Below, piece by piece: positions 2,474-64,000 of a stretch of 64,000 bases of DNA (positions within the stretch are counted from its first letter, which is position 1; each line of letters opens with the position of its first letter). The position numbers and the translations under genes were made by a program. The stretch is taken from the NCBI GenBank assembly GCA_047972425.1, contig JBKEAR010000003.1, positions 166,422 through 230,421 on the forward strand, written 5' to 3'. Below the pieces are notes generated by a model, which saw only the letters and a program-made list of their open reading frames with translations, was not told the DNA's origin and did no database searches. The stretch is from Alphaproteobacteria bacterium (GTDB lineage: Bacteria > Pseudomonadota > Alphaproteobacteria > JBKEAR01).

Positions 2474-2504
2474 AGCATCAAAATAAATTGATATAAAAAA
2501 TAAT

Positions 2505-2537
2505 AAGCCCTATACTTTTAGTTAGGGCTTTTATTTT
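2505..2537 (+). terminator. Rho-independent terminator after pfk
   Basis: AAGCCCTA-N10-TAGGGCTT hairpin followed by TTTTATTTT. Confidence 0.5.
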
Positions 2538-2603
2538 AACGAATATAGCGCAACATTTACTAAAAATAATCACTATAAAGTACGGTGGTTACATGAGGGC
2601 AAT

Positions 2604-3473
2604 ATGGAAAAAAAATATTTAAGATATAAGGTTGATGGCTCAAAAAAAATAAGCTTAAAAGGTTTTGAGACACGCGATAAAGGGTCTTATGACAATAAAG
2701 AAGAAGGGCTTAAAAAACTTGAGGAAAATAAACTTGAAATCATAGAGTTGCAAAATAAACTATATGCACAAAATGAATATGCTTTGCTTATTATCTTTCA
2801 GGCTTTAGATGCCGCCGGAAAAGATAGCGCCATTAAGCATGTTATGAGTGGTGTTAACCCGCAGGGTTTCCAAGTATATAGTTTTAAAGCACCATCGAAT
2901 GAAGAGCTAGAGCATGGTTATTTATGGCGAACCTCTAAGGCGCTACCAGAGCGTGGGCGCATTGGTATTTTTAATCGTTCATATTACGAAGATGTTTTGG
3001 TGGTAAAGGTTAATAATTTAATTAAAAATCAAAATCTCCCCAAAGATAGACATTATGATGATATATGGCTTAAAAGATATCGGCAGATTAGTGAGCATGA
3101 AAGATATTTATTCGAAAATGCAACGATACCGATAAAGTTTTTTTTAAATGTTTCTAAAGATGAGCAAAAAGAAAGATTTATTGCCAGAATAGATAATCCT
3201 TCAAAAAATTGGAAGTTTGCAAAAGCTGATATTGATACAAGGGCATATTGGAATGATTATCAGGATGCTTATGAGACTGCTATTAATCATACAGCAACAA
3301 AAGATGCCCCTTGGTATGTTATCCCCGCTGATAGAAAATGGTACGCAAGGTTATTAATATCAGAGATTATTTTAGATGAGATGAAGAAACTTAATTTACA
3401 ATATCCGCGGCTGAACCAAAAAGAGATAGAGGCTCTTCAAGGCTATAAAATACAACTATTAGATGAAAAGTAA
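2604..3473 (+). CDS. Polyphosphate kinase 2 (PPK2) family polyphosphate:nucleotide phosphotransferase
   Basis: Walker A-like FQALDAAGKDSAI and NRSYYEDVLVVKV motifs characteristic of PPK2. Confidence 0.8.
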   Translation: MEKKYLRYKVDGSKKISLKGFETRDKGSYDNKEEGLKKLEENKLEIIELQNKLYAQNEYALLIIFQALDAAGKDSAIKHVMSGVNPQGFQVYSFKAPSNEELEHGYLWRTSKALPERGRIGIFNRSYYEDVLVVKVNNLIKNQNLPKDRHYDDIWLKRYRQISEHERYLFENATIPIKFFLNVSKDEQKERFIARIDNPSKNWKFAKADIDTRAYWNDYQDAYETAINHTATKDAPWYVIPADRKWYARLLISEIILDEMKKLNLQYPRLNQKEIEALQGYKIQLLDEK

Positions 3474-28154: not shown

Positions 28155-28730
28155 TTACTCTATTACAGCTAAAGTTGCAGGGTCTGGTAATCCAATAGGT
28201 TTTGGCGGTGGCGATATAATATCGGTTGCTTCTACTGTAACAACCTCTTGCACAATAGCTTCGCCATCAGCACGGCAATCTACTGCATATAAATCGTAAA
28301 GTTGGTGCTCAAATGGAGAAAGGGAGGGAGCCGATGCAAACATCCAGCCCGAAAAAACATTATTTTGCGAACTGCGTTCTTTAACCTTTAAAAATATACC
28401 GCTTTCCGGGATATACTCTGGGGGTCTTTCTTGGCAAGAAAATACCGATATTTCTAAATCCTCAAATGATTGTGTTTCATTAACTTTAATTGTTAATTGG
28501 CTCGATCTCCCCGAAACCTTATTAAGCGCCTTAAGTATGGCAACATCTTTTTTAATAACAGGTGGAGAATCAGAACCTTGCTCAGCAATAATTTCACCCA
28601 AATTATCATTGGCTTGAACTTGGGGTTCAGTTTGCCCGGCGATGATATCATCTAAATCATCGGCAAACCCATTATACGCAAAACCACCCATTACAGCGAT
28701 TGTTAATAACTGATAAAATTTTTGATGCAT
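28155..28730 (-). CDS. DUF2155 domain protein (signal peptide)
   Basis: Conserved alphaproteobacterial partner of NDUFA12-like proteins. Start taken at the Met at 28730, 4 nt after the upstream gene stop. The ORF is open to 28760. Confidence 0.55.
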   Translation of the reverse strand: MHQKFYQLLTIAVMGGFAYNGFADDLDDIIAGQTEPQVQANDNLGEIIAEQGSDSPPVIKKDVAILKALNKVSGRSSQLTIKVNETQSFEDLEISVFSCQERPPEYIPESGIFLKVKERSSQNNVFSGWMFASAPSLSPFEHQLYDLYAVDCRADGEAIVQEVVTVEATDIISPPPKPIGLPDPATLAVIE

Positions 28731-61683: not shown

Positions 61684-61759
61684 GGGTGGTTAGCTCAGCT
61701 GGGAGAGCGACTGGTTTACACCCAGTAGGTCAGCGGTTCGATCCCGTTACCACCCACCA
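61684..61759 (+). tRNA. tRNA-Val (anticodon TAC)
   Basis: GGGTGGTTAGCTCAGCTGGGAGAGC D-arm. Anticodon loop TTTACAC. GGTTCGATCC T-loop. ACCACCCACCA end. Confidence 0.85.
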
Positions 61760-61854
61760 GATTTTTTAAAAATCTAAAATTTGGTTTTTCTAAATAAAAA
61801 GCTTTGACAAGTCTTTTTTATTTTTGTAAAACCACCAAGCTAATAAAACAACAA

Positions 61855-61931
<77 letters not shown>

Positions 61932-61953
61932 CTTGTTGTTATTATAAATATTA

Positions 61954-62030
<77 letters not shown>

Positions 62031-62311
62031 TTTATTTCCAAATATATTTCATGAAAACCCTCCATATTTTACGCAGATATTTATATACCAATAAAGCAAT
62101 TACTTTACATGCTGATATGTTGAAAATTGAATTTGCACTATTATCTCAATTGCCTGAGTGAGTATCGGCTGCGAATTGATTAATTAATGATACACAAAAA
62201 AATAAATCGAATATTCACTAACGCTCTATCAATAGCTGAATATACCTGCCTTGTGTTAAGTATATAGTCGGCAACTGAATCTATCCGTTTCTTAAATTTC
62301 ACAAACCTTAT

Positions 62312-62352
62312 TGACAAGCGTTTTATTCAATGATAATAATTAATTATTATCA
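62312..62352 (+). promoter_or_regulatory. Candidate sigma-70 promoter (TTGACA at 62312-62317) with overlapping perfect 22-bp palindromic operator TGATAATAATTAATTATTATCA (62331-62352)
   Basis: TTGACA, 17-nt spacer, then TAATAA -10-like hexamer inside the palindrome. The palindrome is a 7-8-7 arrangement of Fur-box-like half-sites TGATAAT/ATTATCA. Located 32 nt upstream of the yheO-like start. Confidence 0.35.
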
Positions 62353-62383: not shown

Positions 62384-63004
62384 ATGAAAGTTACTGTAGA
62401 TTTAGAAATTTTAGCCAATTTTTTATCTAAGGCCTTAGGTCAATCAATGGAAGTAGCTGTTCATGACTTAAATGATATTAACAACAGCTTACTTATCCTC
62501 AAAAATGGTCATGTTACAGGGCGCAAAGAGGGGATGGGCATTACCGATTTAGCATTAGAGATGATTAAAGATCAATCAAGTAATCCAGATACTCCATATA
62601 AGGTTAATTATGAAAGTCGTACCTTAGATGGCAGATTACTCCGGTCATCTACATTGATCCTTCAAGATGACGATGATAAACCAAAAGCCATTTTATGTCT
62701 TAACCATGATGATTCTGAATTTCATAGCCTTATAGAGCATCTGCAGCAAATAACAAAAATTGAAGACCATTATAGTCGTGAGAATTTTTCTACTGGTGTT
62801 TCTCATTTAGGAGAAAAAATCATTGCCGATGTTATGGCAAGTAATCATAAACCTGTGAGTAAATTAAATGTGCAGGAGAAAAAGCAGCTTGCAGCAATGA
62901 TGGTTAAAGCGGGAGCCTTTGAAATTAAAGGTTCTGTTGAAATTGCAGCTAAAATGCTAAATGTTTCCGAACCAACTCTTTATCGATACCTTAAGCAGGC
63001 ATAG
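62384..63004 (+). CDS. YheO/DauR-family transcriptional regulator (PAS-like sensor N-domain plus C-terminal HTH)
   Basis: NGHVTGRKEGMGITDLALEMIKDQ matches the E. coli YheO core (NGEHTGRKIGSPITDLALRML). C-terminal HTH GSVEIAAKMLNVSEPTLYRYLK. Confidence 0.65.
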   Translation: MKVTVDLEILANFLSKALGQSMEVAVHDLNDINNSLLILKNGHVTGRKEGMGITDLALEMIKDQSSNPDTPYKVNYESRTLDGRLLRSSTLILQDDDDKPKAILCLNHDDSEFHSLIEHLQQITKIEDHYSRENFSTGVSHLGEKIIADVMASNHKPVSKLNVQEKKQLAAMMVKAGAFEIKGSVEIAAKMLNVSEPTLYRYLKQA

Positions 63005-63026
63005 CTAAAGGATAGGGAGGTAAGAA

Positions 63027-63086
63027 ATGGAAAAAGAAAATTTTTTGAAATGGATTATCTGTCTTATTAAATGCCCCGATTCCTAA
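63027..63086 (+). CDS. Candidate 19-codon leader peptide MEKENFLKWIICLIKCPDS upstream of the tryptophanase-family gene
   Basis: Strong SD GGGAGG 6 nt upstream of the ATG. Contains a single Trp codon, and Pro two codons from the stop. Followed by an AT-rich inverted repeat (TCAATATTAT...ATAATATTGA) ending next to the lyase SD. Speculative. Confidence 0.3.
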   Translation: MEKENFLKWIICLIKCPDS

Positions 63087-63139
63087 ATATATTCAATATT
63101 ATATCATCTATATAAATTAATAATAATATTGAAATATAA

Positions 63140-64000
63140 GGAAAAAACAATGAAACGTATTCCGGAACCTTTCCGTATAAAAATGGTTGAACCCATTCGG
63201 ATGACCAATTATAACGACCGTAAAAAAGCCATTGTAGAGGCTGGCTATAACCCATTTTCATTAAAAAGCAAAGATGTATATATTGATCTCTTAACTGATT
63301 CTGGCACAGGAGCCATGAGTGATAATCAGTGGGCTGGGTTGATGCTTGGTGATGAAGCTTATGCAGGAAGCCGAAACTTTTATAATCTCTACAATGCAGT
63401 ACAACATTTTTTTGGTTATGAATTTGTTATTCCGACCCATCAGGGGCGTGGTGCCGAACAAATTCTATTCCCTTGTTTGATCGAGAAAATGAAGCGGGAA
63501 AGAGGCGGTGATAAACCTGTATTTATTTCTAATTACCATTTCGATACAACCGCTGCACATATAGAACTTAATGGAGCTAAAGCGCTCAATATCGTAACTG
63601 AAAAAGCTTTTGATACAAAAACCTACTATGATTGGAAAGGGAATTTCGATTTAGAAAAGCTTGAAACGACTATTGCAGAGCATGGCAGCAAAAATATTGC
63701 AGCAATTGTCACAACAGTTACATGTAACAGCTCAGGCGGCCAGCCCATCTCTATGGCAAATATGCGTTCTGTACACGAGATTGCTAAAAAGCATAATATT
63801 CCCGTTGTTATTGATTCTGCGCGTTATTGCGAAAATGCCTATTTCATCAAACAACGTGAAAAAGGTTATGAAAATAAATCGATTTTAGAAATTATTAGAG
63901 AAATGTATTGTTATGGCGATATGCTGACAATGTCGGCTAAAAAAGACCCTATGGTTAATATCGGCGGATTATGCTGTATAAAAGGTGATAAAGAACTTTT
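63140..64000 (+). CDS. Tryptophanase / tyrosine phenol-lyase family beta-eliminating lyase (PLP-dependent), 3' end beyond window
   Basis: [15 protein letters not shown]...[30 protein letters not shown]...[10 protein letters not shown]...NFDLEKLE...[23 protein letters not shown]...[13 protein letters not shown]. Strong collinear similarity to E. coli TnaA and Citrobacter TPL, including the PLP-lysine region SAKKD. In frame from the ATG at 63140 to the window end. Confidence 0.8.

Follow-up and report, generated by a model that had tools for sequence, protein, structure and literature searches.

What is the short open reading frame (ORF) that separates a YheO-like regulator gene from the tryptophanase gene tnaA at the end of a 64,000-nucleotide stretch of the alphaproteobacterial contig JBKEAR010000003.1 (the window), and does it act on tnaA as the leader peptide TnaC does? 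The original prediction took it for a TnaC-like leader with a single Trp codon and a downstream hairpin. We compared about 60 tnaA loci, drawn from a genome scan, a metagenome scan, a protein search and contig look-ups. The ORF appears to belong to a previously undescribed leader family, which ends in KCP[D/E]x-stop and is non-homologous to TnaC; no description of a tnaA leader of this type, or of a YheO–tnaA pairing, was found in open-access papers and bioRxiv, whose coverage is incomplete. The comparison indicates that the ORF is very probably a translated and selected leader. We further propose, with the balance standing about level, that this leader would gate tnaA translation in cis through ribosome dwell and unmasking of the Shine–Dalgarno (SD) sequence.

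The leader ORF was correctly recognized as a 19-codon frame between regulator and lyase, preceded by a GGGAGG SD at a spacing of 6 nt, and containing one Trp codon (W9) and a Pro (P17) that is followed by two sense codons and the stop. The regulator stop at 63004 was also placed correctly (TAG, 63002-63004). The lyase start had been put at 63140, however, where the bases 63140-63141 are in fact the GG of the lyase SD; the ATG lies at 63150, and the spacer from leader stop to tnaA ATG measures 63 nt rather than 53 nt, with 4 C and 3 G among its bases. The + strand of the window (38.7% G+C) has five copies of GGGAGG, of which the one in front of the leader is alone in lying outside a longer ORF and having a start codon at good spacing. 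A second mini-ORF with GGGAGG 6 nt before an ATG, at 28322, falls within a minus-strand ORF of 201 aa, and we attribute it to chance. The leader region also holds an 8-nt direct repeat, GAAATGGA, at 63024-63031 and 63047-63054; the first copy includes the leader ATG, and the second includes the Lys8-Trp9 codons and makes an out-of-frame ATG. This repeat is probably due to chance.

Six distinct loci carry a leader of this kind: the window, L001, L059, L057/L058, L061/L062 and L056. Their TnaA proteins are 82-90% identical and fall into two neighbouring subclades, and their regulators are 60-78% identical. In all six, a mini-ORF of 15-28 codons with a purine-rich SD 4-9 nt upstream of its ATG lies 63-93 nt before tnaA and ends in [LI]-[IV]-K-C-P-[DE]-x-stop. 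Counted from the stop, the conserved segment spans about 10 residues, [IV]-[IFY]-x-[LI]-[IV]-K-C-P-[DE]-x, while the N-terminus varies in both sequence and length (15, 19 or 28 residues). Exactly two sense codons stand between the Pro and the stop in every locus; the stop codon itself is TAA in three, TAG in two and TGA in one. The nucleotide substitutions follow the codons. The invariant leader columns of our alignment (A1) are exactly positions 1 and 2 of the codons AAR TGY CCY GAW for K, C, P and D/E, and all four wobble positions vary. From codon -7 to codon -2, the variable sites comprise six of six third positions, two first positions and no second position (p ~3e-4, a hypergeometric estimate for 8 variable among 18 sites). 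Mean pairwise identity reaches 68% over the last 30 nt of the leader (48% after shuffling) and 77-80% over tnaA (50-51% after shuffling); the spacers, at 54%, equal their shuffled control (54%), and neutral sequence at these loci is saturated. The substitution pattern argues that the leader ORF is under selection as a peptide.

Conservation at the amino-acid level had been named as the point on which the leader would stand or fall. The ORF as a whole is conserved, as are the Pro and its distance to the stop, and this part of the prediction holds; the Trp is not. W9 is found only in the window; L001 and L059 have Arg in its place, and the 15-residue leaders have no equivalent residue. A single Trp in such a leader is within chance expectation.

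The KCP leader family is rare. No further KCP[DE]x-stop was present in the six-frame translations of 534 kb of fetched DNA, and the leader peptide has no Pfam or NCBIfam match. A metagenome scan with the TnaA fragment added no KCP locus and gave no relative above 77%, and tblastn of a plasmid collection with the regulator returned only PAS-domain proteins of ~30% identity. Among 5.8 billion proteins there are 11 regulator clusters at >=60% identity, with the loci of six of them (P0122, at 87% identity, and P0123, P0124, P0126, P0128 and P0130, at 62-66%) lying outside our comparison. The features of the window locus and the peptides of the six leaders are collected in Table 1.

Table 1. Elements of the regulator–leader–tnaA region in the window, and the leader peptides of the six KCP loci
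Feature	Position	Strand	Description
Sigma-70-like promoter	62311-62340	+	TTGACA-18-AATAAT, 11/12; best-scoring of the region; 5' of the regulator
Palindrome	62331-62352		Perfect, 22 bp, TGATAATAATT/AATTATTATCA; overlaps the -10 region
YheO-like transcription regulator	62384-63004	+	206 aa; PAS_6 + HTH_22; PF08348 1.2e-31, PF13309 5.6e-18
Leader SD	63015-63020	+	GGGAGG; 6 nt upstream of the leader ATG
Leader ORF (window leader)	63027-63086	+	ATG 63027, TAA 63084-63086; 19 codons + TAA; peptide MEKENFLKWIICLIKCPDS, then stop
Conserved core of the leader			L13-I14-K15-C16-P17-D18-x19-stop, from the six-locus comparison
Candidate anti-SD	63080-63084	+	UUCCU; end of the Asp codon, Ser codon and first stop base; predicted partner AGGAA 63139-63143
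Inverted repeat, 5' arm	63092-63102	+	TTCAATATTAT; hairpin
Inverted repeat, 3' arm	63123-63133	+	ATAATATTGAA; hairpin
tnaA SD	63138-63143	+	AAGGAA; core AGGAA 63139-63143; 6 nt upstream of the ATG
tnaA (tryptophanase)	63150-64000	+	N-terminal 283 codons, running off the window end
L001 leader			MSKENLFERIFCLVKCPDS; Alphaproteobacteria metagenome-assembled genome, TnaA 90% identical
L059 leader			MNKGTLLQRIFCLVKCPDS
L057/L058 leader			MQRQDIYRLIKCPED
L061/L062 leader			MQKKYIYSLVKCPED
L056 leader			MIFKYDYQNKEDVLQKSYVYLIVKCPDG

How might such a peptide act on tnaA? In the scheme that we propose, regulator, leader and tnaA would be transcribed together from the operator-bearing TTGACA promoter 5' of the regulator. 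In the naked mRNA, the tnaA SD would be held in a helix with the last leader codons, which in the window would be stacked on the AT-rich hairpin. A ribosome dwelling at the last leader codons or the stop would cover one strand and melt the structure, and the tnaA SD would thereby be exposed and tnaA translated. The dwell would be prolonged by the invariant KCP[D/E]x-stop nascent chain, acting as an arrest or slow-termination peptide, and a small molecule such as L-tryptophan might be required for the arrest. With the leader stop in its A site, a ribosome would shield the mRNA to about 63097, a span that takes in the anti-SD, the A/U helix described below and half of the inner arm. An arrest or slow-termination peptide is proposed because the genes share a transcript, the leader SD is stronger than that of tnaA, selection is concentrated at the C-terminus of the peptide, and the 3' end of the leader tends to pair with the tnaA SD; the unmasking step follows the logic of ErmCL, SecM and MifM. 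In arrest peptides a C-terminal core is conserved while the N-terminal part varies (PMC12992588), a pattern that the KCP leaders also show. The arrest, its ligand and the direction of regulation are what we infer, and the SD/anti-SD complementarity and the hairpin are partly shown by the predicted folds. A more ambitious version, in which the KCP[D/E]x-stop peptides are metabolite-sensing arrest peptides that replaced TnaC in one lineage of AT-rich Alphaproteobacteria and turn tryptophanase on by SD unmasking, is tentative, and we lean somewhat against it.

The predicted RNA structures agree with this scheme in some loci. The inverted repeat of the original prediction is present, its two 11-nt arms being 100% complementary, although they are 20 nt and not 19 nt apart. 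The segment running from the last four leader codons to the tnaA ATG folds with -12.3 kcal/mol in the window (z = -2.95, 1.3% of dinucleotide shuffles) and -9.9 kcal/mol in L001, where 4% of shuffles match it; the hairpin stem TTCAAT/ATTGAA of the window is TTCAGT/ACTGAA in L001, with both sides changed. A three-tier structure is common to the short-segment folds of the window, L001 and L059. Its outer helix joins the leader end (UUCCU/UUCUU, from the Asp-Ser-stop codons) to the tnaA SD (AGGAA/GGGAA), and is followed by a short A/U helix and by an inner hairpin that differs by locus (TTCAATATTAT, TTCAGT, CTTAGA). L057 and L061 have AGGAC as the SD flank and its complement GUCCU in the Cys-Pro codons, equivalent to UUCCU:AGGAA in the window. 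The UUCCU/SD duplex of the window has a predicted energy of -5.4 kcal/mol, which 2.6% of background windows reach. Ranked against all 18-nt windows of its own locus, the duplex of leader 3' end and SD region stands at 0.026 in the window, 0.144 in L001, 0.445 in L059, 0.001 in L057, <0.001 in L061 and 0.41 in L056. In L001, L057 and L061 the minimum free energy (MFE) structure of the full leader pairs its 3' end with the tnaA SD, and in the window only the short-segment MFE does so; the full-leader MFE of the window pairs the bases of the 3' end and the SD elsewhere, the SD GGAA being unpaired with a probability of 0.02-0.15. When the three CPDS-type spacers were aligned with MAFFT and folded with RNAalifold, the outer UUCCU:AGGAA helix was recovered and the inner hairpin misaligned; covariation cannot be read from an alignment of spacers this diverged. 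A search of 63005-63150 against Rfam gave nothing meaningful, the best hit being a eukaryotic element at E = 5.

In the SD-accessibility shuffle test, the values are 0.16 for the window, 0.34 for L001, 0.83 for L059, 0.000 for L057, 0.067 for L061 and 0.86 for L056; only L057 reaches significance, and L061 is marginal. Since SD occlusion is not significant overall by this test, SD sequestration is not claimed here as established; occlusion by the leader end is plausible and recurs among the loci. The level at which control would be exerted is suggested by the spacers themselves. They contain 6-13% C in the six loci, which makes a Rho utilization site unlikely, and terminator-like sites are absent from the spacers of the window, L001, L057, L059 and L056, with a weak 5-bp one in L061. 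Because the spacer is too short, too poor in C and, in five of six loci, free of terminators for Rho-dependent or intrinsic attenuation, control of translation is the more plausible. The earlier suggestion of translation-coupled rather than Rho-dependent control thus agrees with the spacer, while the SD-occlusion statistics for it are mixed.

Several points weigh against arrest and unmasking. The sample is small, with only six loci, and L057 and L061 are sister loci, so that their agreement counts once. The hairpin energy is no better than that of shuffles in L059 (38%), L057 (11%), L061 (22%) and L056 (61%), SD occlusion does not significantly exceed that of shuffles in four of the six loci, and the anti-SD complementarity is absent in L059 and L056. 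Moreover, the Pro codon CCU resembles an anti-SD by its very nature. On the peptide side, no known arrest motif matches; the nearest, RAPP/RAGP, needs an Arg where the KCP leaders have Lys (PMC12992588). Because the stop codons differ among loci (UAA, UGA, UAG), an arrest at termination would have to be independent of the release factor. Finally, a ligand-binding regulator is already present at the locus, so that a second sensor is not strictly needed.

If the leader does not arrest ribosomes, it might be a passive ORF, since any short ORF could open the mRNA or shield the 146 nt that separate regulator and tnaA from Rho, whatever peptide it encodes. The strong SD, the short distance to tnaA and a predicted structure whose 5' strand coincides with the end of the ORF would suit any peptide. 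Such an account nevertheless leaves unexplained why selection acts on the amino acids K-C-P-D/E while the wobble positions are free, and why the distance from Pro to stop is fixed across loci whose spacers are randomized, and we judge it unlikely. Alternatively, the ORF might encode a micro-protein of 15-28 aa that acts in trans, for example by binding TnaA, the regulator or the permease, or by binding a thiol or metal through its conserved Cys. The invariance of this Cys (there are two in the 19-residue leaders) and the co-inheritance of the ORF with tnaA even in L056, which lacks the regulator, are in keeping with a micro-protein. Its length, however, differs among loci by nearly a factor of two, only the C-terminal ~10 residues beside the stop are conserved, and no Pfam or NCBIfam family matches it. 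A location always 63-93 nt before the tnaA start, behind an SD far stronger than that of tnaA, is the anatomy of a leader, and a trans-acting product seems to us quite unlikely. The cis-acting leader remains our preferred reading.

The inverted repeat could also be read at the DNA level, as an operator for the YheO-like regulator or another repressor rather than an RNA hairpin. It is a perfect 11-bp inverted repeat whose arm centres are 31 bp apart (about three helical turns), it lies by the regulator gene, and L056, without the regulator, is also without a comparable repeat. The C-terminal helix-turn-helix of the regulators, on the other hand, is nearly identical among loci (SEPTLYRYLKQ[AV]), yet the arms differ (TTCAAT.., TTCAGT, CTTAGA, AGATTGAAA); a repeat that changes while the recognition helices stay nearly the same argues against its being the regulator's operator. 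A better candidate is the conserved TGATAAT..ATTATCA palindrome found at the promoter of every regulator, and the operator reading of the spacer repeat is accordingly quite improbable.

This palindrome belongs to the putative control region of the whole unit. In each locus, the best promoter-like site is a TTGACA element 5' of the regulator (at 432 in L061 and 2161 in L059), with equivalent TTGACA promoters in L061, L059 and L056, whereas in the window the interval from regulator to tnaA yielded no promoter-like site. The window element is the probable promoter of the regulator–leader–tnaA unit. Sequence-conserved TGATAAT-(N)-ATTATCA palindromes lie at about 2168-2205 in L057, 2172-2215 in L059, 463-500 in L061 and 2750-2767 in L056, and the palindrome overlaps the -10 of the TTGACA promoter in every locus for which the region is available. 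It is a probable operator. It resembles the 7-1-7 Fur-box consensus, and could serve either the YheO-like regulator or iron regulation.

The same YheO-like regulator gene stands directly 5' of the leader in L001, L057/L058, L059 and L061/L062. In five of the six loci, the end of the regulator and the leader ATG are 20-37 nt apart (24-37 nt to the first base past the stop codon). In L056 the regulator is nearly all deleted; a 3' remnant of ~66 nt (MFHA...FYRYLKRV) matches the L061 regulator at 16 of 16 nt. The region 2500-3003 of this locus holds a strong terminator (2536-2565), the promoter (2738-2767), the regulator remnant, a 28-codon leader and tnaA. The leader is here the first ORF of the transcript, and promoter, leader and tnaA have been retained although the regulator was lost. 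By its sequence, L056 is a natural experiment in which the leader persists without the regulator.

The alternative closest to the original prediction is that the leader is a divergent member of the TnaC family, in which free L-Trp would bind in the exit tunnel beside W9 and block termination or elongation at the Pro. The position directly 5' of a tryptophanase gene, which in relatives is followed by a Trp/Tyr permease gene, and a short ORF with a Trp and a Pro near the C-terminus are what such a member would show. TnaC function depends on W12, D16, I19 and P24 (PMC10941005), and the window leader does not have this arrangement: its W-to-P distance is 8 and not 12, there is no Asp at W+4, and its Pro is not the last sense codon. 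A scan of the ORFs 5' of tnaA for W-x3-D-x7-P gave 18 matching loci and none of the six KCP loci. The carriers include Shewanella, Photorhabdus, Morganella, several Xenorhabdus, Providencia, Burkholderiaceae, the alphaproteobacterium Polycladidibacter and several metagenomic relatives. The TnaC hidden Markov models TIGR02616 and PF08053 returned no match to five KCP peptides at E<=10, whereas the controls, TnaC peptides from neighbouring tnaA clades, scored 41.6 bits (Morganella, cutoff 23.55), 16.9 bits (Burkholderiaceae) and 16.4 bits (Shewanella). The spacers differ as well, at 63 nt and poor in C in the window and 63-93 nt in the KCP loci, compared with 105-332 nt in the loci with the TnaC motif. 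Given the Arg at the position of W9 in the two closest relatives, the Trp of the window, which prompted the analogy with TnaC, is incidental. The failed motif and model tests refute membership of the TnaC family, and a divergent member is very improbable.

Among TnaAs that are 78-85% identical, KCP and TnaC leaders are mutually exclusive, which points to the replacement of one leader by the other. The loci of P0006, P0008, P0010 and P0012 have canonical TnaC. P0022 and P0023 have no regulator 5' of tnaA, and L065, the locus of P0023, has neither a KCP nor a TnaC motif; the motif scan left out L068, the locus of P0022, and the contig of P0002 ends 50 nt before tnaA.

Other leader types were also seen at tnaA. 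A third family precedes several Xenorhabdus tnaA paralogues (L010/L011, L012, L013, L014, L015 and L018), 111-161 nt 5' of the tnaA-like gene, and ends in ..[IL][LF]-x-P-x-P-[IAV]-stop, as in MSLELMLYKCFFQVHSNLINRILKPAPI, with no W-x3-D motif; Xenorhabdus L019, L021 and L023 have canonical TnaC. In L004 (Parendozoicomonas, MRNKNPLNINASVKWFVIDESRAAFRLHF) and L007 (Sansalvadorimonas, MRFNNIITSNMSARWYVIDESRSAFLLHF), leaders ~100-200 nt 5' of tnaA keep W-x3-D, end in ..LHF-stop and have no Pro at W+12, a Pro-less variant of TnaC.

Two attenuator models were considered and rejected. A starvation-sensing attenuator reading Trp or Cys codons has neither a codon run nor a conserved terminator, and its logic would be wrong for a catabolic enzyme; a classical trpL-type attenuator is excluded by a single Trp codon in the window leader and none in the other five, and by the lack of a spacer terminator apart from that of L061. 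Lastly, although short ORFs arise often and the interval measures just 146 nt, a chance ORF in AT-rich intergenic DNA is refuted by its recurrence at six loci, together with an SD, an invariant motif and codon-periodic substitutions, which reduces its likelihood to almost nothing.

The gene downstream of the leader is indeed an aromatic lyase, as predicted, and specifically a tryptophanase. On TIGR02617 the 283-aa fragment in the window reaches 489 bits, compared with 339 for the tyrosine phenol-lyase model. A full-length protein of 466 aa that is 100% identical to the fragment (P0001; NCBI name 'tryptophanase [Alphaproteobacteria bacterium]') scores 815 bits on TIGR02617 (cutoff 825.8), 749 on NF009709 (cutoff 285) and 570 on the tyrosine phenol-lyase model, under its cutoff of 720.7. 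In relatives, tnaA is followed by the Trp/Tyr permease and then by RidA; the window ends within tnaA.

The pairing of regulator and tnaA extends beyond the KCP loci. In the Clostridia loci L022, L025, L032, L033 and L035, a YheO-like PAS_6/HTH_22 regulator 27-31% identical to that of the window lies 5' of tnaA; it adjoins tnaA in L025, L032, L033 and L035, and an ORF of ~420 nt intervenes in L022. No leader ORF was found in these five regulator–tnaA loci, and the pairing is therefore older and wider than the leader. Further 5' of the tna locus in the window, a tRNA cluster (61684-62030) with tRNA-Val(TAC) and then two identical tandem tRNA-Asp(GTC) genes (61855-61931 and 61954-62030) sits 3' of lon and an HU-like gene. 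L061 has a tRNA-like 3' end just 5' of the regulator promoter, so the locus may occupy a conserved tRNA-flanked site.

To our knowledge, only a handful of nascent peptides, including TnaC and SpeFL, let the ribosome sense a small metabolite, and TnaC is the classic example. A second leader at this genetic position, without homology to TnaC, would be a natural experiment on how different peptides solve the same sensing problem. If the proposal is true, the exit tunnel would hold a second, unrelated solution to small-molecule sensing, the read-out could have moved from Rho-dependent transcription to translation initiation, and tryptophanase would have recruited nascent-peptide sensors independently several times (TnaC, KCP and the third type of Xenorhabdus). 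At a mere 15-19 residues, with a sharply defined core of six, the peptide is directly testable in the PURE system and attractive for cryo-electron microscopy. Even if it is not an arrest peptide, the locus presents a conserved, unannotated micro-ORF and a regulator–leader–tnaA–permease–RidA operon in a poorly studied lineage.

How does this leader compare with the systems it recalls? In ErmCL–ermC, SecM–secA and MifM–yidC2, a stalled ribosome frees the downstream SD. The KCP leaders resemble them in that the 3' end of the ORF is predicted to pair with, or stack on, the SD region, so that a lingering ribosome would open the structure. They differ in that the peptide motif is unrelated, the signal would be metabolic rather than an antibiotic or secretion, and SD occlusion is predicted in four of the six loci (the window, L001, L057 and L061) and not in L059 and L056. 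SpeFL is an ornithine-sensing peptide that arrests at termination. With it the KCP leaders share a short ORF 5' of an enzyme of amino-acid catabolism or biosynthesis and a conserved C-terminal segment whose distance to the stop is fixed; the sequences are not similar, however, and the KCP stop codon varies (UAA, UGA, UAG). The RAPP/RAGP peptides (ApdA, ApdP, ApcA and SecM) likewise have a basic residue, a small residue and a Pro near the C-terminus of a small upstream ORF, behind a variable N-terminus (PMC12992588), whereas the six leaders have K-C-P-[D/E] followed by one more codon and the stop. The Arg of RAPP/RAGP is reported to tolerate no substitution, and Pro or Gly takes the A-site position (PMC12992588); a RAPP-like arrest core was rejected, as the irreplaceable Arg is Lys here and the fourth residue is neither Pro nor Gly. 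The comparison with TnaC of E. coli and Proteus is the closest in position. KCP leaders lack W-x3-D-x2-I-x4-P, a model match and a conserved Trp, their Pro stands at -3 from the stop whereas that of TnaC comes last, their 63-93-nt spacers are A+T-rich and poor in C, which makes Rho-dependent attenuation unlikely, and they are paired with a YheO-like regulator that is absent from TnaC loci. Both, however, are short translated ORFs with their own SD immediately 5' of tnaA; each has a conserved Pro near the stop and is conserved mainly where the chain would occupy the exit tunnel, and their mutual exclusion across close tnaA homologues suggests that one has functionally replaced the other.

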